A DNA stretch of 30,343 nt, taken from positions 1 to 30,343 of IMG/VR virus record IMGVR_UViG_3300033149_003049; one strand, given 5' to 3'. Source of the stretch: a virus. Position 1 is the first letter of the stretch. Every line of letters starts with the position of its first letter. Under the pieces are notes generated by a model. The model made no database searches, had not been told where the DNA came from, and worked only from the letters and a program-made list of their open reading frames with translations. Of this stretch, positions 475-30,342 are shown piece after piece. The translations under genes were made by a program, and so were the position numbers.

Positions 475-492
475 AACTAACCTCCTGCTTTT

Positions 493-10033: not shown

Positions 10034-10336
10034 CTATCTCTTATCCTCCCCCTCTTCCTCTTTCTCCTGCTTAAGCATTATGCTAGTCAACAAACAGAAC
10101 CGCTCTATAAATTCCAACCTCCCCTCCACCCCAAACTCCTTCATAATAAGCGCCAACCCATCTACATTCAGAGTATACCCACCAAAGCCATTCTGCATTA
10201 CAAGAAGGGGAAAATAGCGGACAAAGACATACCAGACAAACGCATTCTCTTCTGTAGGATCTACCCACCCACACTCTTCACATGTGGGTCTAGGCCAGCC
10301 CATCTCTCGCATCTGTTGACACTTTTCACATGTCAC
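10034..10336 (-). CDS. Tail assembly chaperone, downstream (T-like) part; probably made as a -1 frameshift fusion
   Basis: CxxC...CxxC motif; the frame stays open 63 nt upstream of the GTG, back to the slippery site; stop abuts the tape-measure ATG. Confidence 0.75.
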   Translation of the reverse strand: MTCEKCQQMREMGWPRPTCEECGWVDPTEENAFVWYVFVRYFPLLVMQNGFGGYTLNVDGLALIMKEFGVEGRLEFIERFCLLTSIMLKQEKEEEGEDKR

Positions 10337-10350
10337 TTCTACTCCATCTT

Positions 10351-10854
10351 TTATCCCTTGTTGCCTCCTCCGCTGCCATTCTGCAAACTGGATAAGTTTT
10401 TTTCCTGTTCCTCCCTATACCTACGACGAAAATCCTCAAACTGGCTCATTACCATACGAGAAGCCTCTATCCATGTCACCCCCAGCATGGGGTACCCCCT
10501 CTTCACCAAAGCTAGCTTGTTCTCTCTTGTGCAAGGTAGCTCCTTCTCCTTCTCATCCACCACCCCTTTCCAATCCTTTACGATGTAGTCAATCAAAGCC
10601 TCATTCAGCCCATCATTGTCCACCTGGGTGGTGCGCTGAGTCTCCCTACGACCCTGCACAAAAACTGTCTCTACCTTTTCTGTAGTATACCTCTCTCTCA
10701 ACCCACTATACACTTCATCAGTCAACGGGTTAATCAAAAAGGACACTTTATCCCGCTCATCTTTAGAGAACTCCCCTAGCTCTGACTTATCAAACAGAGG
10801 GTCACTTGCCTTGATCCATACTGGTTCTGGTGTTAATTTAAATTTAATGCCCAT
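10351..10854 (-). CDS. Tail assembly chaperone (G-like, 167 aa)
   Basis: Between tube and tape measure; ..DWKGV.DE...ELPCT.ENK..L motif; contains the slippery heptamer near its end. Confidence 0.8.
   Translation of the reverse strand: MGIKFKLTPEPVWIKASDPLFDKSELGEFSKDERDKVSFLINPLTDEVYSGLRERYTTEKVETVFVQGRRETQRTTQVDNDGLNEALIDYIVKDWKGVVDEKEKELPCTRENKLALVKRGYPMLGVTWIEASRMVMSQFEDFRRRYREEQEKNLSSLQNGSGGGNKG
10396..10402 (-). other. -1 programmed ribosomal frameshift site A AAA AAC
   Basis: Codons GAA AAA AAC give an X XXY YYZ heptamer. The -1 frame reads KLIQFAEWQRRRQQGIKDGVEVTCEKC..., continuous with 10034..10336, giving about 273 aa. Confidence 0.78.
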
Positions 10855-10893
10855 TACTATGCTCCTCCTTTTCTATCTATTTTACACTCCTCT

Positions 10894-11925
10894 CTAACCT
10901 AATATATCCCCAGACCTAGTATTCACTAGCGTAATCATAAACGGCTCAGTGCAAGGCATGCCATTTGGAGTGGCAACACAAGCGTCCAATTGCAAAGTCA
11001 CTGTATGCCCTATCTTCCCGGGGCCTCCTACTGGCGCAGTTGCTGTGACAATCTTAGCTGAAGGGGCTTCTATTTTGAACATGTAACTGTTAGCATCTGT
11101 GAAGGTGATATCCAGCTTCTGTAGAGTGGCACTGTTAATTGCAGTAGTAAAATCATTCATGCTATACTTATCAAAAGTCAACTCCAGTGTAGCAGTGGGA
11201 AAACCACCCCCAGTTGGTTCACTAATATCATTATAACTGGCATCACGGTTCTCTTCCATTGGACGGTCAAAAGTCAACCTAATAGTATGTGGATATATCT
11301 TATCACTATCACTCAGTGCAGCCCCATCCCTGGCATTCATCCTAATCTTAGCATTATCATCAAATACCACGCAGTGATACCTGTCTGGATAGGTTACATT
11401 AGCTATCGTGTCTGTACTGTTTACCTGGCTCTCTGTTTCCCACTTATTGCCAGTGCAATTAAACTCTGCTGTAACAATCTCGCCTACCGTCGCATTAAAA
11501 GAAAAACCAGTAACCTTGAGACTGGGAATTTCCCATACTTTGTCAGTTTTCTTCTTGATTACAAACGTTCCAAACAGCCCATCATTATTTGGTGCAAGCC
11601 TAATTTTATGTTCCCACTTATCACTTCCACTGCTGATGCAGGTAGGGGTAGCTGTAGAACCCATTCCACAAGCAATCAGCTTATCCAACCCCATATACCG
11701 CATGTTTGCGCCTAATGTTCCTGAAGGTGCTGGATAAAAGGTATCAATCCGCTCAGTAATAAAGTTCACCCCCAAGGACTCATCTGCAATAGGCGTCCGC
11801 CCAATATCCCCTAGTGCCTCATTGGTAATCAACACTCCATCTCCACTTCCACACTCCACTGCTGTCCGCCAGCTAGCCGCCTTTTTAAATGCTGCTATAA
11901 TCTCTCTTCCTGTTATTGCTGCCAT
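10894..11925 (-). CDS. Major tail tube protein (343 aa)
   Basis: Position between the terminator-like neck gene and the chaperones; beta-rich; strong SD AGGAGGTGA; preceded by a copy of the conserved motif. Confidence 0.75.
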   Translation of the reverse strand: MAAITGREIIAAFKKAASWRTAVECGSGDGVLITNEALGDIGRTPIADESLGVNFITERIDTFYPAPSGTLGANMRYMGLDKLIACGMGSTATPTCISSGSDKWEHKIRLAPNNDGLFGTFVIKKKTDKVWEIPSLKVTGFSFNATVGEIVTAEFNCTGNKWETESQVNSTDTIANVTYPDRYHCVVFDDNAKIRMNARDGAALSDSDKIYPHTIRLTFDRPMEENRDASYNDISEPTGGGFPTATLELTFDKYSMNDFTTAINSATLQKLDITFTDANSYMFKIEAPSAKIVTATAPVGGPGKIGHTVTLQLDACVATPNGMPCTEPFMITLVNTRSGDILG

Positions 11926-11966
11926 TCTCTTTCACCTCCTATACTCTCATCATTACTTCTACCTAA

Positions 11967-11995
11967 TTAATAAGGAAATTAAGTCTAAAAATTTA
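11967..11995 (-). promoter_or_regulatory. Conserved 29-nt motif, copy 3 (TAAATTTTTAGACTTAATTTCCTTATTAA), upstream of the tail tube gene
   Basis: 19 of 29 positions are invariant across three copies, each at an operon-internal gene junction. Confidence 0.7.
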
Positions 11996-12451
11996 TGTGT
12001 CTTCAATGCAGTCATTTATTATCTGGTATTGAGCCGCCCAAAAAACTACCTGTGGGGTGGAATACAGCTCCCAAGCCCTCACTGGTTTGAGCGGTCTGAT
12101 GGATAGGCCAAAGGTCTTCTCCTTCAACTTCCCCATTACATCCTTCAATATTGTATATGCACCCTTATCTCCACCTCTAGCCTTTGACTGGTCTCGGTAA
12201 CTCTGGCTTATAATCAAGAGGTCAACCACCACAGTCTCCCGTGTACACTCTTGGTCCGCATACTCATACTCTGCTGAAGACACTTTTACCAACACGGCTG
12301 GAAACTGATTTACAAAAAACTTTGTCAGTGCCTCCTCACTAGCCAACTCACCCGCATACCCTTTCAGTGCCTTCAAGTACCCACCTTTTTCTTTTAATAA
12401 AGGTTCCAAAGCATCCAAAACCTTATCCTCATAATCCTTCAAACTATACAC
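11993..12451 (-). CDS. Mu gp37-like (DUF1834-like) tail terminator/neck protein
   Basis: Size, position and PAVLV...GAY.IL..V...L......I.PL.P pattern. Confidence 0.65.
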   Translation of the reverse strand: MYSLKDYEDKVLDALEPLLKEKGGYLKALKGYAGELASEEALTKFFVNQFPAVLVKVSSAEYEYADQECTRETVVVDLLIISQSYRDQSKARGGDKGAYTILKDVMGKLKEKTFGLSIRPLKPVRAWELYSTPQVVFWAAQYQIINDCIEDT

Positions 12452-12455
12452 TCTG

Positions 12456-12947
12456 TTATTCCTCTTTCATCACATGTCTACTAATTATCTTTACTACCAA
12501 ATCCCAATCCCCTTCCCATAACCCCTCAAACGGTAACAACATCCTCTTTGGGACATCACCCCAAGGGATAGGCGTCCCTCGTTTTGTCCTTCCATACTGT
12601 CCTTTTCTAGCTCCAAACTGATGAGTAGGGGCATATCTCACCTCAGTCCCCCACTCTACCCCTCGTTGACTAAAGGTGTAAACAAAACTTTGCTGTAATG
12701 TACCCATATCAGCCAATATCTTTGGTCTACCCTTACCTTTACCTTTCCTCCGCCTTGCAATGGTCACAGGGCTAAGGGGTTTCCAAGGCTGCCTGTATGG
12801 GTCATGTTCCCTCCTCCACCCCCTCTGCCATCTACCAAGCAATGCCTCACCTATCTCTCGCATTGCTGGGGCGAGGTCTCCCAATGCTCTTGCCACTACC
12901 TCAGCCTTTTTCCTTGCCTCTCTAGTATCTACCTCAAACTTTATCAT
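12456..12947 (-). CDS. Mu gpG-like virion morphogenesis (tail completion) protein
   Basis: P.....W.PLSP.T...R.....IL.D.G.L..S......V..GT...YA..HQFG......VP.R..L motif. Confidence 0.85.
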   Translation of the reverse strand: MIKFEVDTREARKKAEVVARALGDLAPAMREIGEALLGRWQRGWRREHDPYRQPWKPLSPVTIARRRKGKGKGRPKILADMGTLQQSFVYTFSQRGVEWGTEVRYAPTHQFGARKGQYGRTKRGTPIPWGDVPKRMLLPFEGLWEGDWDLVVKIISRHVMKEE

Positions 12948-12948
12948 G

Positions 12949-13224
12949 TCATTTCCACCAAATGGCCTTAGTCAGCACAGCAGTAAACCCACCGAAAAAC
13001 CCTGTCACTGCGCTCACCCCCCTATCTCTCCACCTACGTGTCTCCAATTTCCTAAACCGCTCCCCACACGCATGTTTCTGGGTAGACAGGCAGTCATTTA
13101 TGTTCACTATATACTCAAACAAAATATTCAACTTCACATTCACATCTGTAATCTGTCCAAAATCCTCTCTACTAATTGGTCTCATCCCTGGTGGCATTTT
13201 TCTCTCTCCTTTCTTTGTGGCCAT
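12949..13224 (-). CDS. Small protein with one C-terminal hydrophobic segment; possibly holin/XhlA-like
   Basis: Short coiled coil followed by VSAVTGFFGGFTAVLTKAIWWK. Confidence 0.45.
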   Translation of the reverse strand: MATKKGERKMPPGMRPISREDFGQITDVNVKLNILFEYIVNINDCLSTQKHACGERFRKLETRRWRDRGVSAVTGFFGGFTAVLTKAIWWK

Positions 13225-13229
13225 TCCCT

Positions 13230-13322
13230 TTACAGGGCTTCTAGGGATTGGATACCCAAGCCTTGTAGCCCCAAGGCTAAAATACTCTTGAAAGCATTAA
13301 TATCATGGTGCAAATAAATCAT
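13230..13322 (-). CDS. Micro-ORF (30 aa, MIYLHHDINAFKSILALGLQGLGIQSLEAL)
   Basis: ATGA overlap with the stop of the upstream gene; ends 5 nt before the next ATG. Confidence 0.4.
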   Translation of the reverse strand: MIYLHHDINAFKSILALGLQGLGIQSLEAL

Positions 13323-14128
13323 AAATCCCGCTCATCTTCCTCGTCATCAATACGGTCATCATCAATAAACTGCTCCTCATACTCTATCATCGCAAAGGTA
13401 GGGTGGTAGTTTTTAGTGCTAGACCAAACCTCCGTGCCAACTTTCTTCGCTATCACCTCTCCTGCTGTATTCACCAGAGTTAAGCTCCCCACCTCCAAAG
13501 CTGTAATAGTCTTTTCTATCTTCTCTCTCTTTCCCTCAATCCAATCAAGTAAATCAGCCCCTACATGAATAGCATGATCATCTAGTATCTCCACCAATGC
13601 CAATGTCTTACTAAGCTTACCAATCAATGGAGGAAAACTGTTTACACCAGTGGCAAAAGGGACAGAATACATGGAAGACAATCTAGCATTTATCACTGCA
13701 TCAGCATCAGCAATATACTGTCGTAAATCCTCATTAGTTAGCTCTAATTGGTCAAGCTTTTTATACAACCGACGCAAATCATTCGGGTGACTGTATAGGC
13801 CAGCCTCATCTGCAGTGGTCTCTACTACCTCAAACAGCCCCCGGCTGATGTAATCCTTATCCCCAACAGTTACCTTCCATACATAACTATACATGCCAAC
13901 CGTGGAAGGTAGAGTCTGGAGGACGTAGTAATCATAATCACTACTCTGCGATGCTGTAACACTGGACACTAGAGTTCCATTTTTGTCATAGATAGCTAGT
14001 AAAGGTTCTGTGCCTGGGGGAATACTAAAGCTAATGGTAAACTGCTTGGTATCCCCTTTCTCATACTTCTCATACTCTGTCTCTACCTCGCCAGCCATCC
14101 CCAAGTAGTCTTTTATCTCAAATGCCAA
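13319..14128 (-). CDS. Head-tail adaptor (Mu gp36/DUF1320-like) with an extra N-terminal beta-sandwich domain
   Basis: C-terminal Y....DL...........I.DA.A.I.A.L...Y.VP motif; the first ~100 aa are Ig-like (FTISF...YYV...VG.Y.Y.WKVT). Confidence 0.75.
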   Translation of the reverse strand: MAFEIKDYLGMAGEVETEYEKYEKGDTKQFTISFSIPPGTEPLLAIYDKNGTLVSSVTASQSSDYDYYVLQTLPSTVGMYSYVWKVTVGDKDYISRGLFEVVETTADEAGLYSHPNDLRRLYKKLDQLELTNEDLRQYIADADAVINARLSSMYSVPFATGVNSFPPLIGKLSKTLALVEILDDHAIHVGADLLDWIEGKREKIEKTITALEVGSLTLVNTAGEVIAKKVGTEVWSSTKNYHPTFAMIEYEEQFIDDDRIDDEEDERDL

Positions 14129-14140
14129 TGCACCCCCCTC

Positions 14141-16999
14141 CTATACATACTTACCTTCCAAGTCTTTTGTCTGAACCTTAATTCTACTCCTCAAATACTT
14201 TATCAAGTCCTCACTACTTGCAAACCTAGCCATCATAACTGTAGGACTACCATCTATCTGTCTATCTGCCTTCAATGCCCAAGCCACCTCAAACCCCCTA
14301 CCCAGTATAGCCAATGCCTCTGTGTAGTAAGGCAATCCATCCTCCTCCAAATGGTCACCAGAGCCAAGAAAATTCTCTTGAAACATCCTCACTGCCCGCT
14401 CACATAGCTCCACCACCTCTGGGGTCACTTGCCTTCCATTCCCCTCCAATATATACCGAGCCATGTGAACCCAATCTCTCATGATGAGGTACTTCCCCAG
14501 CGTCCGCTCTGGATACTTTTCCCTATCCCTCTTCACGAGGTTGATATTGCGATAGAACTTCCTCCGCCGTCTCTCCTCACTCAAATACCCATCATGAGCC
14601 AATCCCACATCAGCCAAACAAACTACCGGCACCACAGCCTCCTTGCCCGGTAGGCGTGGGTGCTCATGCACCATCCCCCAAAACTTAATCCCCAACCCAT
14701 TTCTAAACACCCTCACCGGCTGGTCAGGTTTAAACGGATGTTCTGGAAAGATGCTGAAATGATGTTGTTTTATCACATAGCCATTATACATATTAGTCCG
14801 CAAATATTTAAATAAATCTCTAGCCTCAATCAGCTCCTCATCCGCATCCATCCAAAGGATGAAATCAGTGGTAGCATGCTTTATGCATTCATTCCTCACC
14901 ACATCAAACCCTACCTCCAACGGGTTAGGTCCCTTGTATACCTTGTCTGTATACTGTTTTGCTATCTCTACCGTGCTATCACTACTACCTGTATCCATCA
15001 CAATAATCTCATCAAACGCACTAGCACTCTTCAATGCCCTATGTAACATTGCCTCAGCATCCTTTACTATCAAACAAGCTGCTATTGTTTGTCTAGGTCG
15101 TTGTATAAAGCACTTCCGTCCCATATCCACTTGTCCTACTTCAACACTGCTCTTCTGTCTATATGTAACAAAATGCCAACCCAACGGCTCACCATCCCTA
15201 GGGCTATTGCCAGCCAAGCCTACATTGACTGTGTATTCAGGTTTCTTACCAAACATATCCCGTAGGTCATGTCTATCAAAATGCCAAAAATGCCCTTTAT
15301 ACTTCAGCTCACCACCAGAAGCTCCCCAAGACCCAAACGGAACACTAATCAATACATGTCCACCTTCCTTTACCCACTTTTCTACTTTTCTCATTACTGT
15401 CCATGGTTGTCTAAAATGCTCTAAAATCTCAAAAGCCACTAAACAATCATATTGTCCAAGGACACTATTCTCATCCCCCACCACAAAATTAACATTGCTG
15501 TATTTGTTCAATCGCTTTGCCAGCTCCACTTTTTCTGACACTACCTCTACACCAGTGAAATGCACAGTGGGGAACTGTTTAGCTAGGTTAAAAACATATT
15601 GGCCTACATCACTCCCAAAATCCACTGCTGTCTTTATGTCTGGATGCTCCTTCAGGTAATCCACCAAAAACTGAAGCCTCACAGGGCTGACCATCCCCTC
15701 TATCTCTTCTATACTTTTCACCCCAGTAGGGCCTTCCTCTAGAAACTGCTCTGTGTAAAACTGTTTTACCCCCTCTGCAGCTCCCTGATATTGTTTGTCA
15801 ATCTCTACCCTTTCTTCCTCACCCATCAAGGCTCTAGCAGCCTCTATGTCTTCATAGTAAATAAAATGTTTTTTCAACCTTTCTTTGTCCTGTGTTTGTT
15901 CAGAAAAGAACTGATGAAACTTCTCCATCCACTGCCCCACTACCTTTCCCCAATCAAACTCCTCTGCTCTCTCCCTCCCCCGCTCTGCAAGTTGTCTCCT
16001 TTTGGATGGGCTTCTAGCCAAATAGAGAAGAGCCTTAATAAACCTGTCCTGGTAATCTGGGGTAGATGCCTGCCCTGATACAAAATATCCACAATCCCCC
16101 AACACCTCACGCAGTGCGCCTACATCATTACAAACAAAAACTGTTCCACTTGCCATTGCTTCCACTGCACTGATACAAAACACCTCTTCAAAATCACTAC
16201 AATAAGCATATATCCCTGCACTTTGGTACTGTTTATAAAGCTCCTGTTTATTCAGATGTCCTAGGTTAGTACAGTTAGGTAGCTCTTCAATCCTACCCCA
16301 AAGATACTCATACAGCCCCCTCATCTCAGGCACAGTGTTATCATACCCAGCTACATAGAGATGAAACCTAGGCTCTATCTTTAGTAACTTCTCCATTACC
16401 CCATCAGGCCCTACCAAATTAACCAGCCCACGCTCTGGTCTGGCACAATAAAGTAACCTGTATGGGTCTCCTTCACCAAATGGGATTTCCTCAACTGATA
16501 CCCCATTATGTATTGGCCAGAATACCTGCTCTGGTAGCCCGTATACCTCCCTTTGTTGCTCTGCATGCCACTGGCTTACTGTGACCACTCTGTCTACATT
16601 CCACATTACTTGGTGTACACTGACCTTGTTTCTCTTTAGGGCCAGATCATGGTTCCACAGTATATTCAACCTGCTGCAAGCCCTCCCAGCGAAAGCCTGA
16701 GGCCACCGTTGGACAATAGTTATGTCATGTGGAAAGCTGGTGATATATTTAGATGCCTGAGTTAGAGGTCTATATATTACTCCATCATAAACCCCAGGGC
16801 CACTAGCAGGGGGGACATCACAGTTACAAAACACTGTCACCCTGTTCCCTAGCTGTGCTAAATGCTTAGCCAAACACAACCCGCATGTTTCACTCCCACC
16901 AAGGCTATGCTTATTCAAACTGTCACCGCTAAATGCCATCCCTGGCACCACCAACACTACATCAAAAGTATAGCTCCTCCTCATATCCTTGCTCCTCAT
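14141..16999 (-). CDS. Tri-domain GT4 glycosyltransferase - class I SAM methyltransferase - GT2 glycosyltransferase (952 aa)
   Basis: GT4: GGSE, EX7E motif EVFCISAVE.MASG. Methyltransferase: DFGSDVG at about aa 460, FEILEH. GT2 from about aa 637: ACLIVKD..., DTGSSDST, WMDADE, GMVHE. Confidence 0.88.
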   Translation of the reverse strand: MRSKDMRRSYTFDVVLVVPGMAFSGDSLNKHSLGGSETCGLCLAKHLAQLGNRVTVFCNCDVPPASGPGVYDGVIYRPLTQASKYITSFPHDITIVQRWPQAFAGRACSRLNILWNHDLALKRNKVSVHQVMWNVDRVVTVSQWHAEQQREVYGLPEQVFWPIHNGVSVEEIPFGEGDPYRLLYCARPERGLVNLVGPDGVMEKLLKIEPRFHLYVAGYDNTVPEMRGLYEYLWGRIEELPNCTNLGHLNKQELYKQYQSAGIYAYCSDFEEVFCISAVEAMASGTVFVCNDVGALREVLGDCGYFVSGQASTPDYQDRFIKALLYLARSPSKRRQLAERGRERAEEFDWGKVVGQWMEKFHQFFSEQTQDKERLKKHFIYYEDIEAARALMGEEERVEIDKQYQGAAEGVKQFYTEQFLEEGPTGVKSIEEIEGMVSPVRLQFLVDYLKEHPDIKTAVDFGSDVGQYVFNLAKQFPTVHFTGVEVVSEKVELAKRLNKYSNVNFVVGDENSVLGQYDCLVAFEILEHFRQPWTVMRKVEKWVKEGGHVLISVPFGSWGASGGELKYKGHFWHFDRHDLRDMFGKKPEYTVNVGLAGNSPRDGEPLGWHFVTYRQKSSVEVGQVDMGRKCFIQRPRQTIAACLIVKDAEAMLHRALKSASAFDEIIVMDTGSSDSTVEIAKQYTDKVYKGPNPLEVGFDVVRNECIKHATTDFILWMDADEELIEARDLFKYLRTNMYNGYVIKQHHFSIFPEHPFKPDQPVRVFRNGLGIKFWGMVHEHPRLPGKEAVVPVVCLADVGLAHDGYLSEERRRRKFYRNINLVKRDREKYPERTLGKYLIMRDWVHMARYILEGNGRQVTPEVVELCERAVRMFQENFLGSGDHLEEDGLPYYTEALAILGRGFEVAWALKADRQIDGSPTVMMARFASSEDLIKYLRSRIKVQTKDLEGKYV

Positions 17000-17058
17000 C
17001 TCTCCTCTATATTATTTATTTGTTTCTTCCTGCACATCAAGCATCCCTCATATTCCAT
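16996..17058 (-). CDS. Micro-ORF (20 aa, MEYEGCLMCRKKQINNIEER)
   Basis: TGATG overlap with the upstream stop and ATGA overlap with the downstream start; spans the gap exactly; has CxxC. Confidence 0.3.
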   Translation of the reverse strand: MEYEGCLMCRKKQINNIEER

Positions 17059-17423
17059 CACTTCCCCCAAGATGCCTTCCCCCTATATTTTTTATTATAA
17101 ATCTCCCATAACCTCTTCATTATCTTCTCATACCTTGCAACCCACACCCTGTCCCAGTCGCTGTCCAAGCCTTCATGCGAGGCTTTCGCCTCAGCTATGA
17201 AAACAAGGTCAGATATAAGTTGCTGTCTCTCCACTTCACCATTATCCAAATAATCAGCAATAGCGTGGAACCGCTCTGCCAGCATGGCATCACGGCTGGT
17301 ATGCTGCATTCCATGCAATCTGGCATCCTCTAATAACCACTGCACCTCTTTAGAGCAATGAAAAGATGCACAGGCATAGGCCATAAAGACGCAAAGGAAT
17401 AACAGCACCGTTCTACGGAACAT
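17058..17423 (-). CDS. Hypothetical exported/membrane-anchored protein (121 aa)
   Basis: Signal-peptide-like N-terminus MFRRTVLLFLCVFMAYAC with a possible lipobox Cys. Confidence 0.55.
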   Translation of the reverse strand: MFRRTVLLFLCVFMAYACASFHCSKEVQWLLEDARLHGMQHTSRDAMLAERFHAIADYLDNGEVERQQLISDLVFIAEAKASHEGLDSDWDRVWVARYEKIMKRLWEIYNKKYRGKASWGK

Positions 17424-18126
17424 AAATCCCTCCTTGTGTCTGCTTCCAAGGCACTTTCGTGTATATCCAGCTATGTGGAAATCCTCTTAACATGCGATAA
17501 ATGGGTGAGCGATGCATATTTTCACGGATTTCATCCTGACTTAACGCATAATTATGAATACAAGGACTAGCAATTATGCCCTGGAAATACATTTCACTCA
17601 GTGTATTGTAGTAAAATCTCCCTATAACTGTTTTGGGAGTTGAATTATAGGCTAAGCCTCGTGTCTTTATATCTTCAAAAACACCATTAACATAAAGCTT
17701 ATTAGTGTCCTCTTTGTGAATTACAACTATATAATACCATTTGCGCATAAGTGGAAACCAAGAGGTCTCAACATAAGTGCAACCATCACTGTCACCAACT
17801 AGTGCGGAAATATTATGGCTAGTGCTGATTGACAAGTTAATCCCATGTTTGTAATCTGACTTATTTGTAATAATTCCATTCCAATCTTCTAATCTGTAAG
17901 CACATGCCCATACTCCGATAGTAATCTCTTGAGGATACAAACCCTTCTTCTGCCCACAATCAATATAATCAGTAGCCCAAGTAAACCTGTATCCCATTAC
18001 TCCAGGTGCAATCATATATGGCCTTGCGCCGCCGTAAGGCGTCCCGTGGTTGCCCTTTCTTGACAGGTCAACCCATTTGCCAGAGCGGACATCCAGTGGG
18101 TGATATGACAAGTCCAGGACTTTCAT
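17413..18126 (-). CDS. LamG/concanavalin A-like domain protein (237 aa)
   Basis: DLS..GNHGT, ITIGVW, WYYIVV......LYVNG, IG......F.G.I....I.N.ALS..EI pattern of LamG-like jellyrolls. Confidence 0.85.
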   Translation of the reverse strand: MKVLDLSYHPLDVRSGKWVDLSRKGNHGTPYGGARPYMIAPGVMGYRFTWATDYIDCGQKKGLYPQEITIGVWACAYRLEDWNGIITNKSDYKHGINLSISTSHNISALVGDSDGCTYVETSWFPLMRKWYYIVVIHKEDTNKLYVNGVFEDIKTRGLAYNSTPKTVIGRFYYNTLSEMYFQGIIASPCIHNYALSQDEIRENMHRSPIYRMLRGFPHSWIYTKVPWKQTQGGIYVP

Positions 18127-18296
18127 TCTGTTACTCCTACTTTCTCGGCAATTTTCTTCTGCCTGATAATTAACTCTTTAAACTTAGCCAAAAATATCTT
18201 GTTATGGTCAACTGGGTCAGGCACTTCTTTAATAATCTCCTCTACATGCACTCCGCCCAGTTTGTTTTTTGTCCGTTTGTATTCTTTAACTTTCAC
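18123..18296 (-). CDS. Small protein (57 aa, GTG start, MKVKEYKRTKNKLGGVHVEEII...); absent from the ORF track
   Basis: SD AGGAGG 5 nt upstream of the GTG; ATGA overlap with the LamG gene. Confidence 0.6.
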   Translation of the reverse strand: MKVKEYKRTKNKLGGVHVEEIIKEVPDPVDHNKIFLAKFKELIIRQKKIAEKVGVTE

Positions 18297-18336
18297 ATTT
18301 ACCTCCTAAAATCCAAGATAACTGTCATAACTGCCT

Positions 18337-18945
18337 CTATCTCAGAAACAATTCTATATAACTATCTGCACTTCCCCTTGAACAATTGAGCCTCATCTTT
18401 GCATTCTCAGTAGTGGCGATGTAACCATAAACTCTAACCCTTAAAGCCAACCTCTCATCTGCTGCAACTGTAAAGCCTGTACTCAAATCCAAAAATGCCT
18501 GTCCTGAGCACGTTTGGTAATCAGCAGAATTGGTAGAAAAGTTAGGCGTGGCATCAGCACTCACTTTACTGGTGAAATTACCTGAACTGTCCATCACACC
18601 AAGATTGAAAGTAGCCTTCGTCCAATAAATATTGCCATCAGTCTCCCCAGTTCTAGCAATGCTCACAGAACAAACTGCACGAACTGCCTGTGCTCCAATC
18701 TGTCTCGGCCGACCCACCAAATCAGCCAACACAAATGTCTTGTCTATCTGCAGAGCCTCACTAGTATCTGTAATTCCAGTCTTTTCCTCATAATCTAAGT
18801 CACTAGTGTCTGAATCCTCTAAATCTGATGGACTAGGGTTTTCCATCAACAAATATGTATGTGTAGAACCCCAAGGGTATGCGTCATTAACCTTCTGCGC
18901 AACAAGAATGGTCGAGCCCAACAAATCCTTTATCCAAACTCTCAT
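18337..18945 (-). CDS. Hypothetical protein (202 aa), possibly virion-associated beta-sandwich
   Basis: SD AGGGGGA; Ser/Thr/Asp-rich, beta-strand pattern; lies in the post-capsid island. Confidence 0.6.
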   Translation of the reverse strand: MRVWIKDLLGSTILVAQKVNDAYPWGSTHTYLLMENPSPSDLEDSDTSDLDYEEKTGITDTSEALQIDKTFVLADLVGRPRQIGAQAVRAVCSVSIARTGETDGNIYWTKATFNLGVMDSSGNFTSKVSADATPNFSTNSADYQTCSGQAFLDLSTGFTVAADERLALRVRVYGYIATTENAKMRLNCSRGSADSYIELFLR

Positions 18946-18962
18946 AGCCGTATCCCCCTACT

Positions 18963-19154
18963 TTATACTCTGCTCCCCCTAGCAATCTCCTCTTCCTGTT
19001 TTTTCAGCCGCCGCCTAGCCAACTGAACCTCCCTCACTACCCGCTTTCCCCCACTCTTTTTTAAATACTCCAACACTCTGTCTAAATTCCTCTCTAACAC
19101 ATCCACTTGACGCTGCAACTTAGCCAAATCAGCCTGTAAATATAAAATCTCCAT
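18963..19154 (-). CDS. Small coiled-coil protein (63 aa)
   Basis: SD GAGGAGGT; heptad pattern. Confidence 0.55.
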   Translation of the reverse strand: MEILYLQADLAKLQRQVDVLERNLDRVLEYLKKSGGKRVVREVQLARRRLKKQEEEIARGSRV

Positions 19155-19177
19155 TCTTCACCTACCTCCTCTCACTT

Positions 19178-19219
19178 AAAAAAATAGGGTAGAGGCCGAG
19201 GAGCAAAACCCCTACCCTA
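19178..19219 (-). terminator. Intrinsic terminator after the major capsid gene
   Basis: Minus-strand RNA UAGGGUAGGGG-13 nt loop-CCUCUACCCUA (11-bp stem, one G-U pair) followed by U7. A second hairpin TGGCAT/ATGCCA lies at 19225..19240. Confidence 0.8.
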
Positions 19220-19285
19220 CAAAATGGCATGCACATGCCAGAAAAGACTCTCATCCAAGCCGCTCCTCTAACTACCACTACCACC

Positions 19286-20266
19286 CTATTGAGAACTCCC
19301 AACATTCACCCTCAATACAGCTAGGTTGCTATCCACGATTTTTTCATCCTGATAGTAACCAACATGGATATCCTGCCTGCCTGCCTTGGGGTCAAAGGGG
19401 AACACCCTAACAACCCAGTTAGGCATATTAGGCACTGTCCATCTAAAGCTGTATCCAAAACTGGGCACATCAATAGCTGGTTTGGGTGGAATGTAGGCAT
19501 AGAGCACGCTGTCATTCCATATTTGGGAAAGAGACATAGTAGCCCCTTTCGCAGCAGTGTTATAGTACGCCCCGCCAATCAAGACCTTATCCACCTCAAG
19601 CAGAGTAGCCACCTGGTCTACCTTGGGGATGCCCCCACCATGTGGATATAGAAGCTCCCGTATCTCTTTACTATCACGGAACTTACGCCATGCTGCCTTT
19701 CCAAATACTATTACATTGGGTTTATATCCACTTATATCCTCCAGCATAGCTATATCACTTTGTGCATCCTCATAGGGGTCAGCATTATCTGTACCCCAAG
19801 CACTAGCCGTGGTAGTATATGTACCCACATTACTGGTGCTGGTCACCATACGAGCTACACGCAACTCATAGTTAATCAACAGTAAATCAGTGATAAAATT
19901 AGCCCGTCTCCGCCTAGACCGTATAGCCACATCAGCATTAGCTGCCTCCTCAGCAGTGATGTAAGTCCCTAGGGCATAATTAACACAGTTATACCCATCA
20001 CTACTTACATCAAAACTGACCATGTTAGGTGGCTGCCCAGGTACACGGTAATCACGAGTCTCCCTAAACTTATCCCCCTGATTGAACACATAGAAATTGT
20101 CACTCTTTTTTGTCACAGGGACAATGGGGAAAATCTGGTCTGCAATAAACCCCTGTGGCCTGTAATCTATTGCTAGATTACTCAGCGCTGCATCTATGTG
20201 TACATCATCAGGGCTCATATCATACATCTTCACCGTATATATTCTTCCCATTTCACTCATCTTCAC
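19286..20266 (-). CDS. Major capsid protein (phage capsid E-like, HK97 fold); probable start is the ATG at 20260
   Basis: DVHID..LSN.AI.Y....FIADQIFP.VPV motif; size; position after scaffold and cement; followed by a terminator. Confidence 0.88.
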   Translation of the reverse strand: MKMSEMGRIYTVKMYDMSPDDVHIDAALSNLAIDYRPQGFIADQIFPIVPVTKKSDNFYVFNQGDKFRETRDYRVPGQPPNMVSFDVSSDGYNCVNYALGTYITAEEAANADVAIRSRRRRANFITDLLLINYELRVARMVTSTSNVGTYTTTASAWGTDNADPYEDAQSDIAMLEDISGYKPNVIVFGKAAWRKFRDSKEIRELLYPHGGGIPKVDQVATLLEVDKVLIGGAYYNTAAKGATMSLSQIWNDSVLYAYIPPKPAIDVPSFGYSFRWTVPNMPNWVVRVFPFDPKAGRQDIHVGYYQDEKIVDSNLAVLRVNVGSSQ

Positions 20267-20274
20267 TTACCTCC

Positions 20275-20691
20275 TTATGGTACGCTAGTAACATTCGCTA
20301 CCGCATTTGCACAATGGATAAAAGCCACTGCTTGTCCACCGCTACTTGCACCTTCAATTACCCATCCAATTGTTCTCTTTCCACTTCCAGTTGTGCTACA
20401 ACTCAATGCCCATCCGCCACTTCCACAATAAATTTTATCACCAGCACTCACTGCACCCCCAACCTTTACTGGCGTCACACCAAGCGGGCAAACCTCAGCC
20501 CATTCACTTGCCTCTGGTTTGTTCTGTAACACCCCAGCGCACACTTGGGTGGGGGCTGCATCCACTACATCAACCTGAGCATCACCAGATATCTCCACTA
20601 AGAAATACTGTTTCCCGCTCAGGTCGTTCTCAGCCTTGGCTGTAAAATTGCAAGGCTGTCCACCTTTATATGGATTTCCACTATATGTCAT
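20275..20691 (-). CDS. Capsid cement/decoration protein (DUF2190-like)
   Basis: A..DL....Y.LV......GVLQNKP.......V..LG...V..G.AV.AGD pattern; directly upstream of the capsid gene. Confidence 0.75.
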   Translation of the reverse strand: MTYSGNPYKGGQPCNFTAKAENDLSGKQYFLVEISGDAQVDVVDAAPTQVCAGVLQNKPEASEWAEVCPLGVTPVKVGGAVSAGDKIYCGSGGWALSCSTTGSGKRTIGWVIEGASSGGQAVAFIHCANAVANVTSVP

Positions 20692-20704
20692 CGCTCTTTA
20701 CCTC

Positions 20705-21343
20705 CTATTCTTTAAACTCTGCATACCGCTTTGCTAGGTCTGGATCAGCTTTCAACACCGCTTCAAATGCCTCTGCATACTTAACTCTATGCTCTGCCAT
20801 ATACGCCTTCACCTTAGCATCCACCTCTTGCCCCACACTAGCAAACTCACCATCACCTTTTACATTACCCAACTGTTCGGTGAAAGAAACCTTGGAGTCT
20901 TGCCTTGTAAGGTAAATTCTAATCATATCAGCAAGACTAGCCTCTTTACTCTCACCCTTCTCATCCTTGACCTGATATTCTTTCTTCTCAGGTGCATAGA
21001 GAAGTAATTGGGTAACCAGTTCCTCATCCCTTGGCAGAACTTTGCCCTGTGCCTTGAGGTCTTTGACAAAGGTCTGGACTTCCATTGTCTTCTGCTTCAA
21101 CTCCAACTCCCTATTCTTTGCCTCTACCTCTTCAGCCTTTTTCCGCAGCTGTTCTGCCTCATCCCTGTACTTTTTCAGCTCACTAATTTCAGCCTCTTTT
21201 GCCTCAAGCTCTTGCTGGAGCTTTTTGGCTTCTTCCTCAGTAGCCTTCCTCTGCGCCTCCTTTAACTGCTCTACCTGTCCAGTGAGCTGTGCAATCTCCT
21301 CATCCTTCCTTTTAATCAACTCAGCAAATTCTTTCTCTGTCAT
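20705..21343 (-). CDS. Putative separately translated scaffold (212 aa) from an internal in-frame start, Met441
   Basis: AAGGAGG lies 8 nt upstream of the in-frame ATG at 21343, exactly where the coiled coil begins. Confidence 0.6.
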   Translation of the reverse strand: MTEKEFAELIKRKDEEIAQLTGQVEQLKEAQRKATEEEAKKLQQELEAKEAEISELKKYRDEAEQLRKKAEEVEAKNRELELKQKTMEVQTFVKDLKAQGKVLPRDEELVTQLLLYAPEKKEYQVKDEKGESKEASLADMIRIYLTRQDSKVSFTEQLGNVKGDGEFASVGQEVDAKVKAYMAEHRVKYAEAFEAVLKADPDLAKRYAEFKE

Positions 21344-22663: not shown

Positions 22664-22685
22664 TCTACTTCTCCCTCTTTATTGT

Positions 22686-22714
22686 TTTATAGGGTGATTT
22701 AGTTACAAAATTTA
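22686..22714 (-). promoter_or_regulatory. Conserved 29-nt motif, copy 2 (TAAATTTTGTAACTAAATCACCCTATAAA), upstream of the protease gene
   Basis: Same blocks and spacing as the copies at 25966..25994 and 11967..11995. Confidence 0.65.
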
Positions 22715-22828
22715 ATCCCCCTTCTTTCCTCCTTTCTTTTTTCCATACGGGGGGGTGGCTATTGAGCTATCATCTATCCCATCTGTTTTTATTTCCTCAT
22801 CTTCATCCTTCCTTCTAACACACCACAT
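22712..22828 (-). CDS. Micro-ORF (38 aa, MWCVRRKDEDEEIKTDGIDDSSIATPPYGKKKGGKKGD)
   Basis: TGATG overlap with the portal-fusion stop; its TAA is the first three bases of motif copy 2, as with the upstream genes at copies 1 and 3. Confidence 0.45.
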   Translation of the reverse strand: MWCVRRKDEDEEIKTDGIDDSSIATPPYGKKKGGKKGD

Positions 22829-25947: not shown

Positions 25948-25965
25948 TTTTTCCTTTCTATCTAG

Positions 25966-25994
25966 TTAATAAGGCAATTTAACTGCAAAATTTA
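25966..25994 (-). promoter_or_regulatory. Conserved 29-nt motif, copy 1 (TAAATTTTGCAGTTAAATTGCCTTATTAA), upstream of the portal gene
   Basis: Aligns with two other copies; similarity to copy 3 continues for 10 nt downstream (YTAGRTAGAA). Confidence 0.7.
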
Positions 25995-26531: not shown

Positions 26532-26718
26532 CCCCCCTCCTAACCTTCCACTCATGTAACACTACCTTGTCTTTTAACCTAACCAGCCGATGGTATTGAT
26601 ATGCAGGGGTGCTCAAGACTATATGTGAGTAATGGGTAGTGAGGAACTTTTTAAACTGGTTACATTGAAACAAACCTCGTATAAGCTCCCTCTCCACTGC
26701 CATCAGCTCATCTTCCAT
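26518..26718 (-). CDS. Hypothetical protein (66 aa, MEDELMAVER...)
   Basis: ATG 11 nt after the GT9 stop; overlaps the sigma start. Confidence 0.5.
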   Translation of the reverse strand: MEDELMAVERELIRGLFQCNQFKKFLTTHYSHIVLSTPAYQYHRLVRLKDKVVLHEWKVRRGDGSR

Positions 26719-26729
26719 ACTTCCTACCC

Positions 26730-27659
26730 TTACTTGTAACATAGCATCCTCCTCACCGCTCTTATTACCCTCTCTACCTTTATCCCTTTCATGCATTCAT
26801 AGTTAGAGCAAGAAAAAAAGAGGTCTTTGCCTTGGCAGGGGGCACAAGGTAAACTGCTATCCAAAACAATGCCTTTTTTAGTGAAATACGGTCGGTTTTT
26901 TGTAATGAGAGTGGGGCCAAACAAGGTAATCAAAGGGATACCCAAAGCATCAGCCACATGCATCAGCCCACTATCATTCATCACTGCAAGATCACACTGG
27001 CTAATTACCTTTGCAGTCTCCGAAATAGTAAGTTTACCAGCATAGTTTACCCCCCTCCCCTTACATGCTTCTACTACTCTCTGCCCTTCCAGCCACTCCT
27101 CTTCACCCCCAACCCAAACCACCCTTGCATCATATTCTTTTACAAGTACCTGTGCGAGCTGGAGGAAATAAGGCCATTTCTTCTTTTGCCAAACAGGCTG
27201 GTTTACAGACCCATTACACAAACAGACATTTATCCCCATCTTAGGCAGGATAGGCCCCTGTGCTAGAGGGATATATGGAGCAGGTATCAACCCCTTATAT
27301 CCCAGCTCATACACGTAACTCATATAATACTCCACCTCATGTTCCCCACTCTCCCACCGTGGGGGTCTCTGGGGTAAAGTAGTCAAGCTAAGCAAGATTT
27401 CATGGACTGCCCCACCACCCCACTGAGTTACAAAAAATAAATCATACCCATCTAAGGAACATGGAAAAAGCCTAATATTATCTATCAAAAACCACTTTTC
27501 ACATACCTCAATCACTGCATCAGAGCGGTTATCTTTCCACTTCTTATCAAACACTACATCAAGAGTAGCATTGGGGTATAAAGCCCAAAGAGCCTTCAAC
27601 GCTGAGGAAAACAAAATCCAATTACCTAGACCATTCTGAAACCCAGTACATATCCTCAC
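26730..27659 (-). CDS. GT9 family (ADP-heptose:LPS heptosyltransferase-like) glycosyltransferase
   Basis: GLGN.IL...ALKAL, KKW.YF..LA..L, NDSGLMH.A.ALG.P...LFGPT motifs. Confidence 0.9.
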   Translation of the reverse strand: MRICTGFQNGLGNWILFSSALKALWALYPNATLDVVFDKKWKDNRSDAVIEVCEKWFLIDNIRLFPCSLDGYDLFFVTQWGGGAVHEILLSLTTLPQRPPRWESGEHEVEYYMSYVYELGYKGLIPAPYIPLAQGPILPKMGINVCLCNGSVNQPVWQKKKWPYFLQLAQVLVKEYDARVVWVGGEEEWLEGQRVVEACKGRGVNYAGKLTISETAKVISQCDLAVMNDSGLMHVADALGIPLITLFGPTLITKNRPYFTKKGIVLDSSLPCAPCQGKDLFFSCSNYECMKGIKVERVIRAVRRMLCYK

Positions 27660-27662
27660 TCT

Positions 27663-28454
27663 CTATCCCTCCCTCCATGTGGAACACTGGGGCTCCTCCC
27701 CCATATGGGTAACCAACCCCGGCACCACCATTACATATTTGCCCTGCCTAACACAGCTATTCTCTGCTCCCCACCCATCCCTATCTCCTATCAAATAGTG
27801 GTCTATGTTACTCCCTCTACCCCTATCGGGCATCCCTCGCTCCGTGCCATCTGGATTTAGGCGAGGGATGGGTAAAAGGCTATCCCAAAACGCCCTTTCT
27901 GCCACCAAACACGTAGCCCGCTCCAGTTTTTTAAACTCCACTGGACGGTCCCGCCATGAAATAGCATCTACAGGGTGGTGTTCTGGACTATCAAACCCAC
28001 CAAAAAACCCTATGGGGTAGTCTCTCCGTAGCTCCTCATATGCATCAATAAGCACCCGTATCCACCCCCGCTTTACCTCTACATCATCTTGTAGGTAAGC
28101 AAAATATTTAGCTGGGGTATAGAACTGCCCAAATACTTTAGACACCCCATACAATACATTCAACCCATAGCACACCCCCTGCCGTCGTTTATTCAAAATA
28201 ACTGCACAAAGCCTACCATCATACAACCGCCGTAAATAATCCCCTGTTCCATCACTACTACAATCATCCGCTATAAACAGACGAAAAGGCACAGTAGTGC
28301 TTCTAAATATGCTATCCAAAGTCCTCCTCAACAAACTACAGCGGTTATACGTAGTAACACCTATATCTACCACCGTCGCGCTCTCTATTCCTCTTACCAT
28401 CACTCTATCCCTCTCAGTCTGTCTCAAAAAGATGCTATTATAGTCTATCTTCAT
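27663..28454 (-). CDS. GT2 family glycosyltransferase
   Basis: V.TYNR..LL.RTL.S, IADDCSSDGT, YLQDDV. Confidence 0.88.
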   Translation of the reverse strand: MKIDYNSIFLRQTERDRVMVRGIESATVVDIGVTTYNRCSLLRRTLDSIFRSTTVPFRLFIADDCSSDGTGDYLRRLYDGRLCAVILNKRRQGVCYGLNVLYGVSKVFGQFYTPAKYFAYLQDDVEVKRGWIRVLIDAYEELRRDYPIGFFGGFDSPEHHPVDAISWRDRPVEFKKLERATCLVAERAFWDSLLPIPRLNPDGTERGMPDRGRGSNIDHYLIGDRDGWGAENSCVRQGKYVMVVPGLVTHMGEEPQCSTWREG

Positions 28455-29086
28455 TCTCCAACCCTCTTATATCCTGTCAATTCAAAAAACGCACTATACA
28501 ACTGCTCAATCTTTTCAATCTGGCCTGCAGTCAAATAGTACCTAAAACCAGCTAGCTTTCTATCATGCACCCAATCCCTCCTCAGCCTACTTTCTAACCC
28601 ATTCACCTGCAAAGCTCTATCTACAACATCCAGAGGGGCATCCACCCCCAAATACCTGAACAACTGCCTAAAGACAATAGATGCATGGGGACCAGTGGCC
28701 CATTCATAAGAGACTAAATGTACAAATGGTTCCCCCCAATACCCCAAAAACCAATTCACATACCGTGACAGACAATTAGGATGGTCAATCAAGATATCAA
28801 TACTTTCCCTTAGTCTCTTTCCTTTTACTACTGGGTCCAAGGGGTGAGAGGGGATATCACGGACATAAAAATAAACAGACACCACCACATCCCGTATATC
28901 CCTGTATATACCAAATACCTGTCTATCCCTACATAAACCTAAACTGCTTGAATAAGGTAAGTGTTGATGGCCATCCACAGCATCATTCAGCACCTGCACT
29001 CCTACTCTCTTAGCAATATACCTAATAACATCATGGAAATACACTGAGGCACTTCTAGGCATCCCCACTGCATACACCCCCTTCAT
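28451..29086 (-). CDS. PAPS-dependent sulfotransferase-like protein (probable start MKGVYAV at 29086)
   Basis: 5'-PSB-like GMPRSAS, 3'-PB-like YRDIRDVVVS, VSYE motif; ATGA overlap with the methyltransferase stop. Confidence 0.78.
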   Translation of the reverse strand: MKGVYAVGMPRSASVYFHDVIRYIAKRVGVQVLNDAVDGHQHLPYSSSLGLCRDRQVFGIYRDIRDVVVSVYFYVRDIPSHPLDPVVKGKRLRESIDILIDHPNCLSRYVNWFLGYWGEPFVHLVSYEWATGPHASIVFRQLFRYLGVDAPLDVVDRALQVNGLESRLRRDWVHDRKLAGFRYYLTAGQIEKIEQLYSAFFELTGYKRVGE

Positions 29087-29709
29087 CCCCTCTTCCCCTC
29101 CTTCCAAAATACCATCAAACTATGTTCCTCCCCTGTTCCATCCACATTCCCCACCACCTCAGCCATTATGCAGTGCAGTGGGGGAAACAGATGTTTATAT
29201 GTATCTATCCCCCTATACCAAATATGCTCTTTATCCTCCAACCAAACACTGGTATTCTCATACAATACTAGATACCCATCTGGGGCTAATACTCTAGTAA
29301 GCTCACCAGCTGCCCGCTTTACGCAGGAGGGGGGGATGTGTTGAAGAGCTGTCCAGCTAAACACACCACCAAACTGAGCATTGGAAAAGGGAAGTTGCAA
29401 GCCACCATACTGGGTAAAAATCCCTTTTGGCGCCCTTTTTTTAGCTTCCTTTACAGCCCACTCCACTATATCCACCCCATACACCTGTTCGCAAAAAGAG
29501 GCCAAAAAAGCAGACCACCTACCCCAGCCACAACCAAAATCTAACACTACTCTATCATGGAATAGAAACCGTAACAGCTCTCCATATTGCTTTTGAAACC
29601 AAGCTGTCTGAGCTGTAAGCTGGGCTGGGGTTAGCTTACAATGGCCTACTGCCTTGCACCCCTGCTCCTTATACCTTTTACACCAATACTTCCTTCCCCC
29701 TTCTTTCAT
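29083..29709 (-). CDS. Class I SAM-dependent methyltransferase
   Basis: VLDFGCGWGR, GVDI, LPF....F, ALQHI, RVL.P.G.LVL.E. Confidence 0.9.
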   Translation of the reverse strand: MKEGGRKYWCKRYKEQGCKAVGHCKLTPAQLTAQTAWFQKQYGELLRFLFHDRVVLDFGCGWGRWSAFLASFCEQVYGVDIVEWAVKEAKKRAPKGIFTQYGGLQLPFSNAQFGGVFSWTALQHIPPSCVKRAAGELTRVLAPDGYLVLYENTSVWLEDKEHIWYRGIDTYKHLFPPLHCIMAEVVGNVDGTGEEHSLMVFWKEGKRG

Positions 29710-29881
29710 ATCTTTCCCTACCCCTCCGCTCTTTTTTTATCACCTGTGCAATACGCAATGTAAGATATTCCACAATCTCTTCCACTACTTTATCCTCTAT
29801 TGTTACACCATGTTTTCTTGCAATCTCTATAATGTTCTGTTTGTGCAAATTAAACAAATCCTCTTTACTCATCCTTGCCAT
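29678..29881 (-). CDS. Small basic protein (67 aa), possible truncated histone fold
   Basis: SD GGAGGGG; by-eye similarity to histone alpha1-L1-alpha2; Arg-rich C-terminus. The confidence refers to the gene; the fold is speculative. Confidence 0.55.
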   Translation of the reverse strand: MARMSKEDLFNLHKQNIIEIARKHGVTIEDKVVEEIVEYLTLRIAQVIKKERRGRERYERRGKEVLV

Positions 29882-29907
29882 TTTTCATTTCCCCTCCACA
29901 AAAAACA

Positions 29908-30342
29908 TTACAAATTTGGTTCAGGATCCTGACAATAAATACAGGGTTCACCAATCTCCTCAAACCGCATTTGGTAAAGTAACCTCAAAAAGCCATGTCT
30001 CCTTTCCCCATTCCATATCTCAGTTATACCCTGCTCCATTATATTGCCAAACTTCACCTGACACTTATAATCCATGCAACATGGATAGAAATCCCCATCA
30101 ACACTCACCATTGCCTCGCTATGGATTACCCTAGAAGGTATCAGTGGGCATATACTAGTCCTCCTCTTTTTCCTCTCATACATAACTGCCCAATAGCCAA
30201 TCCCCTGTATATTCACACTATCTACTCTTCCATGCAAACTCTCCACTACCTTCCATGTAGTATCTTCCACCCCATCATAAACCCAAGGCTTATCCTCCTC
30301 TTTTTTAGGATACATAAAATGCATGTATCTGGGGTAACTTAT
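29908..30342 (-). CDS. SPASM-domain protein, probably the C-terminus of a radical SAM enzyme; open past the right edge
   Basis: C...VSVDGDFYPCC.D.....FGNI....I.EIWNG......PC..C; no stop upstream of the Met called in the track. Confidence 0.82.
   Translation of the reverse strand: MSYPRYMHFMYPKKEEDKPWVYDGVEDTTWKVVESLHGRVDSVNIQGIGYWAVMYERKKRRTSICPLIPSRVIHSEAMVSVDGDFYPCCMDYKCQVKFGNIMEQGITEIWNGERRHGFLRLLYQMRFEEIGEPCIYCQDPEPNL

Follow-up and report, generated by a model that had tools for sequence, protein, structure and literature searches.

The window analyzed here, a 30,343-base viral contig of IMG/VR (IMGVR_UViG_3300033149_003049) with an estimated completeness of about 31%, encodes a 952-residue protein in which a family GT4 glycosyltransferase, a methyltransferase that depends on S-adenosylmethionine (SAM) and a family GT2 glycosyltransferase are fused in a single chain. 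The gene for this tri-domain enzyme is not a moron but belongs to the core of the head module in a large uncultured phage lineage, and to judge from residue conservation in 91 homologues the active sites of the GT4, methyltransferase and GT2 domains alike are retained. With moderate confidence, we favor the view that the enzyme glycosylates a virion protein of its own phage.

We picture a soluble, cytoplasmic, trifunctional enzyme whose gene, lying in the head-neck operon, is presumably expressed late along with those for the head proteins, and which would decorate a component protein of its own particle with a short methylated glycan. The GT2 domain, a metal-dependent transferase of the GT-A fold, would attach the first sugar to serine or threonine, and perhaps to cysteine in some lineages, with acceptor recognition aided by the helical C-terminal domain; the GT4 domain, a retaining GT-B transferase related to ManT and PimA, would add one or more sugars; and the methyltransferase would then methylate the glycan. 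The most likely acceptor would be the major capsid protein at its unstructured C-terminal tail, NVGSSQ in the window, and other or additional virion proteins may also be acceptors. We infer protein as the target, the identity of this acceptor and the order of the reactions; the biological benefit might be shielding, stability or adsorption.

A fused enzyme fixed in the head module

The open reading frame (ORF) of the enzyme runs through 952 codons without an internal stop, on the minus strand, which carries every gene of the window (Table 1). The original prediction, an earlier reading of this DNA from its letters, had described a GT4-methyltransferase-GT2 fusion of this length, placed 12 nucleotides upstream of the head-tail adaptor gene and co-oriented with the structural genes, and in both respects it was correct: the ORF is intact, its domains are recovered by Pfam, and 12 nucleotides separate the enzyme's stop codon from the TTG start of the adaptor gene, whose Shine-Dalgarno sequence (GGAGGGGGG) overlaps that stop codon. 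At the other end of the enzyme, Met6 is as plausible a start as the annotated one, because a 91%-identical relative begins at Met6. In the order of transcription the window encodes a portal-MuF fusion, protease, cement protein, capsid protein, four small ORFs, the enzyme and the adaptor, followed on the same strand by Mu gp36/gp37-like neck proteins and Neck1, the tail tube, chaperones and the tape measure; the genes flanking the enzyme are structural, and all are co-oriented with it.

This arrangement is general. At least 546 viral contigs of IMG/VR encode a relative of the tri-domain enzyme; an exhaustive HMMER search returned 895 clusters at 50% identity (E <= 1e-30), and a word-index search returned about 65 full-length metagenomic homologues at 28-47% identity. 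Gene order was surveyed in the best 80 of the at least 546 viral loci and in prophage-like contigs from metagenome-assembled genomes (MAGs), and nearly all of these loci share the order portal, protease, cement, capsid, zero to four small ORFs, enzyme, adaptor and Neck1. To avoid circularity, a second sample was anchored on the capsid protein by means of an alignment of close-relative capsids. The enzyme gene lies downstream of the capsid gene in 34 of the 34 loci that have at least 5 kb of sequence there, so that its tie to the head-neck operon is universal in this sample; the 11 loci without it all end no more than 3.5 kb past the capsid gene. Pairwise identities of enzyme and capsid are correlated across 91 loci (Spearman 0.73, Pearson 0.81), and the two proteins diverge at similar rates, with mean identities of 37% and 42%, respectively. 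MAG contigs that carry the module have been binned to Desulfobacterota, Gammaproteobacteria, Armatimonadota-related bacteria and others. By tblastn, the tri-domain protein occurs in none of 50,697 GenBank phage records, and megablast of window positions 10000-26000 against 50,697 phage records found no near-identical phage DNA. Of the closest cultured capsid relatives, which are less than 30% identical, two were inspected, Vibrio phage 1.033.O and Roseobacter phage RDJL Phi 1, and neither has an enzyme gene of this kind between capsid and neck. A full-text literature search found no paper describing the GT4-methyltransferase-GT2 family.

All Pfam matches quoted here exceed the curated cut-offs. 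Glyco_transf_4 (residues 34-170, 37.6 bits) and Glycos_transf_1 (204-344, 51.7 bits) together identify the GT4 domain, five methyltransferase families (Methyltransf_23, 12, 31, 11 and 25) match residues 449-584, and Glycos_transf_2 matches residues 644-750. An AlphaFold2 (AF2) model built with 31 homologues is compact, with a mean predicted local distance difference test score (pLDDT) of 90.3 and a predicted template-modeling score (pTM) of 0.89. No transmembrane segment was found in the enzyme (the maximum Kyte-Doolittle mean over 19 residues is 1.55), which is predicted from its sequence to be soluble. In Foldseek searches the GT4 domain best matches ManT (7qsg) and then PimA (2gej), with TM-scores normalized to the target of 0.70-0.79, at identities of 20-23% and with many other GT4 enzymes scoring nearly as high. 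The glycine-rich motif I of the methyltransferase reads V-D460-F-G-S-D-V-G466.

The motifs of the GT2 domain to which the original prediction had drawn attention (CLIVKD, DTGSSD, WMDADE and G-VHE) are all in the translation, and the resemblance to GmaR and SunS that it saw in them is upheld by sequence and by fold. In a phmmer search of PDB sequences the best solved relative is GmaR (22ao, E 1.5e-21, query residues 636-826 against chain residues 8-199), and next come the ThuS/SunS structures 7msk, 7msp and 7msn (E 6.5e-12 to 2.1e-11); D718-A-D720-E721 and H778-E779 align with the corresponding residues of GmaR and ThuS. Tblastn with the enzyme recovered yolJ (sunS) of SPbeta, and Foldseek with the enzyme model matched SunS and ThuS (E of about 1e-15) over 280 aligned columns, beyond the catalytic core. 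The mainly helical C-terminal domain, which has no Pfam TPR match, is presumed from the model to be an acceptor-recognition module.

Conservation was counted over 91 distinct phage homologues. In the GT4 domain G34-G35-x-E37, R187 and E280 are kept in 90 or 91 of them (E280 itself in 90) and K251 in 89-91, and the first position of the EX7E motif, residue 272, is glutamate in 72 and aspartate in 19. D460 of the methyltransferase is present in all 91, G462 and G466 in 85-87 (G466 itself in 87), and E527-H528 in 89-90. D718-x-D720-E721 and H778-E779 of the GT2 domain are invariant (91/91), and R811, R817 and N818 of the C-terminal domain nearly so. By domain, mean pairwise identity is highest for GT2 (49%), followed by GT4 (40%) and the methyltransferase (32%).

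In some relatives the gene is interrupted by inteins, placed exactly at catalytic motifs. P0002, a 91%-identical relative of 1347 residues (loci L002/L003), carries an intein of about 395 residues with a LAGLIDADG-type homing endonuclease between G775 and the residue preceding the invariant H778-E779 of the GT2 domain, which corresponds to about positions 14672-14674 of the window. Three further homologues (P0082, P0088 and P0122) have an intein near residue 275, within the EX7E motif of the GT4 domain; one intein at this site carries an HNH endonuclease, and P0088 has inteins at both sites. The copy in the window is intein-free. As a rule, inteins are found in the conserved catalytic motifs of proteins that are indispensable to the element, and their placement here, taken with the universal synteny, is an argument that both glycosyltransferase activities are of great importance to these phages.

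Some relatives depart from the standard architecture. Two longer homologues (P0093 and P0136) owe their extra length to an additional GT2 or methyltransferase module and not to an intein. A 636-residue GT4-GT2 fusion without a methyltransferase is encoded on an Armatimonadota MAG chromosome (L092:9812-11722), probably within a prophage, since a Phage_tube_2 gene adjoins it; another GT4-GT2 fusion without a methyltransferase, of 852 residues (L095:9977-12535), adjoins an S24-peptidase/helix-turn-helix repressor gene and an alanine racemase gene. At L201/L202 (8968-18239) a separate methyltransferase gene resembling that at 29083-29709 of the window comes after the capsid gene, and 7 kb further on there is just a 464-residue partial match to the tri-domain enzyme; the system may be present there in split form.

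A scan of the region found promoter and terminator sites to be no more numerous than in shuffled sequence, and a search over positions 10000-27000 found just short, weak families of direct repeats. A weak hairpin with a T-run (19225-19240, minus strand), in a region whose count of such sites is not above that of shuffled sequence, lies 46 nucleotides past the capsid stop codon; it might dampen transcription of the enzyme gene that follows, but we give it no weight as evidence.

Candidate acceptors on the virion

If the enzyme acts on the particle, the capsid protein is the leading candidate. In relatives its gene is always upstream of the enzyme gene. The AF2 model of the capsid protein (pLDDT 84) has an HK97-like fold whose last strand is followed by a stretch of coil, residues 321-326 (block pLDDT 74). 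The original prediction had singled out the C-termini of the capsid (...VNVGSSQ) and cement (...ANVTSVP) proteins as acceptors containing serine and threonine, and the two proteins do end in this way. For the capsid, comparison among relatives lends substance to the idea. In 113 distinct capsids from loci with the enzyme, serine and threonine account for 41% of the final five positions as against 13.5% overall, and cysteine for 3.2% as against 0.45%. When these capsids are grouped at 55% identity, 14 clusters result. Seven of them have at least two serines or threonines among the last five residues, a share to be compared with the roughly 14% that composition alone would predict; a single serine or threonine is found in four, cysteine in two and none of these in one. 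The tail pattern V-x-S-S-[TQ], represented by NVGSSQ in the window, is present in both major clades of the enzyme tree, and hydrophobic endings (...LYNIA and ...GGIVA) are seen in the capsids of two distant cultured relatives without the enzyme.

Cysteine appears near the capsid terminus repeatedly, in tails such as ...GCVD, ...DCA, ...SCA, ...VGC and ...SCSQ that represent about six changes on the enzyme tree (among them the capsids of L013, L017, L026, L049, L063, L078 and L188). Since SunS and ThuS, kin of the GT2 domain, glycosylate cysteine, this recurrence is suggestive, by analogy, of an S-linked modification in those lineages.

A second stretch of the capsid deserves mention. An internal motif rich in serine and threonine, T-S-x-S-N-V-G-S, follows the spine helix and is conserved in all of the capsids linked to the enzyme; it is partly kept (as NVGT) in one cultured relative without the enzyme and so may be simply structural, or, judged from its conservation, may be an alternative acceptor site. 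A complex prediction for enzyme residues 615-952 with the full capsid protein scored 0.00 against a mark of 0.32, a result that speaks neither for nor against binding.

Several observations weigh against glycosylation of the virion, or against the capsid tail as its site. The source phage is uncultured and is known here from sequence alone. The enrichment of serine and threonine in the tails is partly phylogenetic, there being only 14 independent clusters, and the comparison with capsids lacking the enzyme comprises only two distant cultured phages. Three lineages have an intact enzyme and yet no serine, threonine or cysteine among the last five capsid residues, and the tail is therefore not a universal sole acceptor. 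As a conserved acceptor the cement C-terminus was rejected, its tails varying freely among relatives. When five cellular genomes with homologues of the GT2 domain were checked, only one had flagellin genes within about 5 kb; the subfamily is thus not exclusively protein-directed, and the label "flagellin-type" that the original prediction gave it is unsafe for the subfamily as a whole. Finally, a tblastn search (E <= 1e-5) revealed no similarity to the mycobacteriophage enzymes Che8 gp108-110 and Corndog gp35-38: the 18 matching records among 50,697 included no Mycobacterium phage.

Given this balance, we regard the C-terminal tail of the capsid as a possible glycosylation site, one about which we are doubtful even as we lean toward some virion protein as the substrate. 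A broader proposal, that capsid glycosylation by one fused polypeptide is an obligatory and ancestral step of head morphogenesis in a lineage of at least 895 clusters, its acceptor having switched repeatedly in several sub-lineages from C-terminal serine or threonine to near-terminal cysteine, strikes us as rather unlikely.

Alternative targets and accessory genes

The alternative that survives best, which we nevertheless consider improbable, is that the substrate is a host protein such as flagellin, pilin or a surface protein (of the S-layer or another kind), whose glycosylation would block superinfection by other phages or remodel the infected cell. Functions of host takeover and exclusion are usually carried by variable morons, and a place between capsid and adaptor that holds in every relative, whether the MAG contig is of Desulfobacterota, Gammaproteobacteria or Armatimonadota, fits them poorly; nor would co-divergence with the capsid be expected. 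To its credit, this explanation accommodates the three lineages whose capsid tails lack serine, threonine and cysteine as well as the one cellular homologue in five that lies near flagellin genes, and GmaR, the closest solved relative of the GT2 domain, acts on flagellin (PMC9638930).

Modification of a host envelope glycan (lipopolysaccharide, O-antigen or capsule), or synthesis of a free methylated oligo- or polysaccharide, seems if anything a shade less probable. In structure the GT4 domain comes closest to ManT, the mannosyltransferase of mycobacterial methylmannose-polysaccharide synthesis, with PimA next, and its fusion to a methyltransferase recalls the ManT pathway, in which glycosylation and methylation alternate; the match to ManT, however, is only marginally above those to many other GT4 enzymes, and the most conserved domain of the family is the GmaR/SunS-like GT2, not the GT4. 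The window also contains genes for a GT9 enzyme, another GT2 enzyme and a methyltransferase upstream, but no flippase, polymerase or Gtr-type membrane partner, and the tri-domain enzyme itself is without a transmembrane segment. Genes for serotype conversion are normally variable and lie near lysogeny modules, whereas this gene is fixed in the head operon.

Least probable is hypermodification of the phage's own DNA, with glycosylated and methylated bases serving to evade restriction: PMC12619734 cites Pyle et al. 2024 for the diversity and wide distribution of phage glycosyltransferases that hypermodify DNA, and the window represents only about 31% of a genome, but the gene's neighbors are those of the head-neck operon and not replication genes, its GT2 domain is of the GmaR/SunS type, and no ThyA-family pyrimidine hydroxymethylase is found in an 82.5-kb relative that has direct terminal repeats, is 100% complete by CheckV and encodes an enzyme 92% identical to that of the window.

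The upstream genes just mentioned belong to an accessory cassette of glycan enzymes that also includes a 218-residue protein and a SPASM-domain protein, the latter running off the end of the window. The cassette is located upstream of the sigma-factor and head genes; it is present in a 92-96%-identical relative (L003/L165) and not in more distant relatives. It may elaborate the same glycan as the tri-domain enzyme or serve another purpose. The interval between the capsid and adaptor genes is likewise a hot spot of variable accessory genes. In the window it contains, besides the enzyme, a protein with a concanavalin-A-like/LamG lectin fold and ORFs of 63, 202 and 121 residues; in a 92%-identical relative (L003:15629-17662) a 677-residue right-handed beta-helix protein follows the enzyme gene instead. 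These accessory proteins are possibly head fibers or glycan-binding decorations.

Table 1. Coordinates of the tri-domain gene, its domains and neighboring features in the window
Feature	Position	Strand	Basis or remark
Tail tube	10894-11925	(-)	Follows the neck genes in transcription order
Head-tail adaptor gene	13319..14128	(-)	phrog_195; conserved downstream neighbor of enzyme in relatives
GT4-methyltransferase-GT2 tri-domain gene (P0001)	14141..16999, stop codon included	(-)	ORF and translation, Pfam domains, AF2 model
C-terminal mainly helical domain	14144..14584, residues 806-952	(-)	AF2 helices 808-899 and 929-947
GT2 domain, GT-A, GmaR/SunS type	14585..15094, residues ~636-805	(-)	phmmer against PDB sequences
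Class I SAM-dependent methyltransferase domain	15155..15664, residues ~446-615	(-)	Five Pfam Methyltransf families
GT4 domain, GT-B, retaining-type	15905..16978, residues ~8-365	(-)	Pfam, Foldseek, EX7E motif E272-E280
Concanavalin-A-like/LamG lectin-fold protein	17413-18126	(-)	237 residues; Pfam E 1e-13
Major capsid protein, lambda gpE-like	19286..20266	(-)	phrog_1005, PHROG E 1.1e-62; leading candidate acceptor
Capsid C-terminal tail NVGSSQ	19289..19306, residues 321-326	(-)	Candidate glycosylation site; modeled as coil
Cement/decoration protein (Phage_cement_2)	20275..20691	(-)	Pfam PF09956; weaker candidate acceptor
Protease	20705-22663	(-)	Structural gene after portal in transcription order
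Portal-MuF fusion	22828-25947	(-)	1039 residues; MuF-like head morphogenesis domain and further C-terminal sequence
Phage sigma-factor gene	25992-26555	(-)	Directly upstream of portal-MuF gene
Accessory glycan-enzyme cassette (GT9, GT2, 218-residue protein, methyltransferase, SPASM-domain protein)	26730..30342	(-)	Pfam
GT9 heptosyltransferase-like	26730-27659	(-)	Pfam
GT2, separate gene	27663-28454	(-)	Pfam
SAM methyltransferase, separate gene	29083-29709	(-)	Pfam

Significance and relation to known systems

Should the enzyme indeed glycosylate its own virion, sugar-coated capsids would no longer be peculiar to actinobacteriophages; a large uncultured lineage would have them as a fixed trait, passed on vertically. 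The hosts of this lineage are diverse and mostly Gram-negative, some of them from sediments and vents, and a glycan coat would bear on how virions withstand proteases, heat, grazing or adsorption to particles, as well as on host recognition and on the engineering of capsid surfaces. If the switch from serine or threonine to cysteine were also real, these would be the first capsids to carry S-linked glycans, and the transferase responsible would be related to the glycocin S-glycosyltransferases. A primer, an extender and a methylase in one soluble protein of 952 residues, with a compact model of high confidence, would also suit protein glyco-engineering.

The ManT/methyltransferase pair provides the best structural matches to the GT4 domain and, like the present enzyme, has a glycosyltransferase working alongside a methyltransferase, although nothing here points to polymer synthesis or to a mannose donor. 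The glycocin S-glycosyltransferases SunS and ThuS modify cysteine of a peptide, and ThuS serine as well. They belong to the same GT-A subfamily as the GT2 domain by sequence and by fold, at identities of about 20-27%, and their cysteine acceptor has a parallel in the several capsid lineages with a near-terminal cysteine; the window, in contrast, has no glycocin precursor peptide, immunity or transporter gene, and the proposed acceptor is the capsid.

The GmaR protein of Listeria monocytogenes transfers N-acetylglucosamine to flagellin, and its TPR domain has been proposed to recognize the protein substrate (PMC9638930). The whole catalytic domain of GmaR aligns with that of the GT2 domain, the D-A-D-E and H-E motifs match, and in both proteins the catalytic domain is followed by a helical one, which in the phage enzyme is predicted from the AF2 model. 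The phage enzyme differs in that it has no antirepressor domain, its helical domain is short (about 150 residues) and lacks a Pfam TPR match, a GT4 domain and a methyltransferase are fused at its N-terminal side, and its gene belongs to a phage head operon instead of a flagellar regulon.

To our knowledge, a few mycobacteriophages are the only tailed phages for which experiments have demonstrated glycosylation of the phage's own virions, and it is to these that the original prediction had likened the present one. Mycobacteriophages of cluster O (Corndog type) are described in PMC11600133 as having one gene for an O-methyltransferase and, after it, three for glycosyltransferases, whose products modify the capsid and the tail tube; Che8 gp110 and Corndog gp38 are named as the essential transferases in PMC12363180, the Che8-type (cluster F1) genes are placed near the 3′ end of the genome in PMC11256854, and the glycans are located at the C-termini of capsid and tail-tube subunits in PMC12619734, which cites Freeman et al. 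2023. The likeness to these actinobacteriophage systems is considerable: in both, phage-encoded soluble glycosyltransferases occur together with a methyltransferase, the established or proposed targets are the virion's own capsid (and tail-tube) subunits, and where the mycobacteriophage glycans sit at protein C-termini, the capsid tails of the present lineage are rich in serine and threonine. Unlike the Che8-type genes, however, the gene described here is fixed between capsid and adaptor in a large uncultured lineage with lambda gpE-like capsids; its three activities are fused in one polypeptide, so far known from genes alone, and its priming-type domain is a GmaR/SunS-like GT2. Since their sequences are not detectably similar, the parallel is one of function and not of homology, and this, together with the single-chain fusion and the GmaR/SunS-type domain, suggests an analogous system that was independently assembled.

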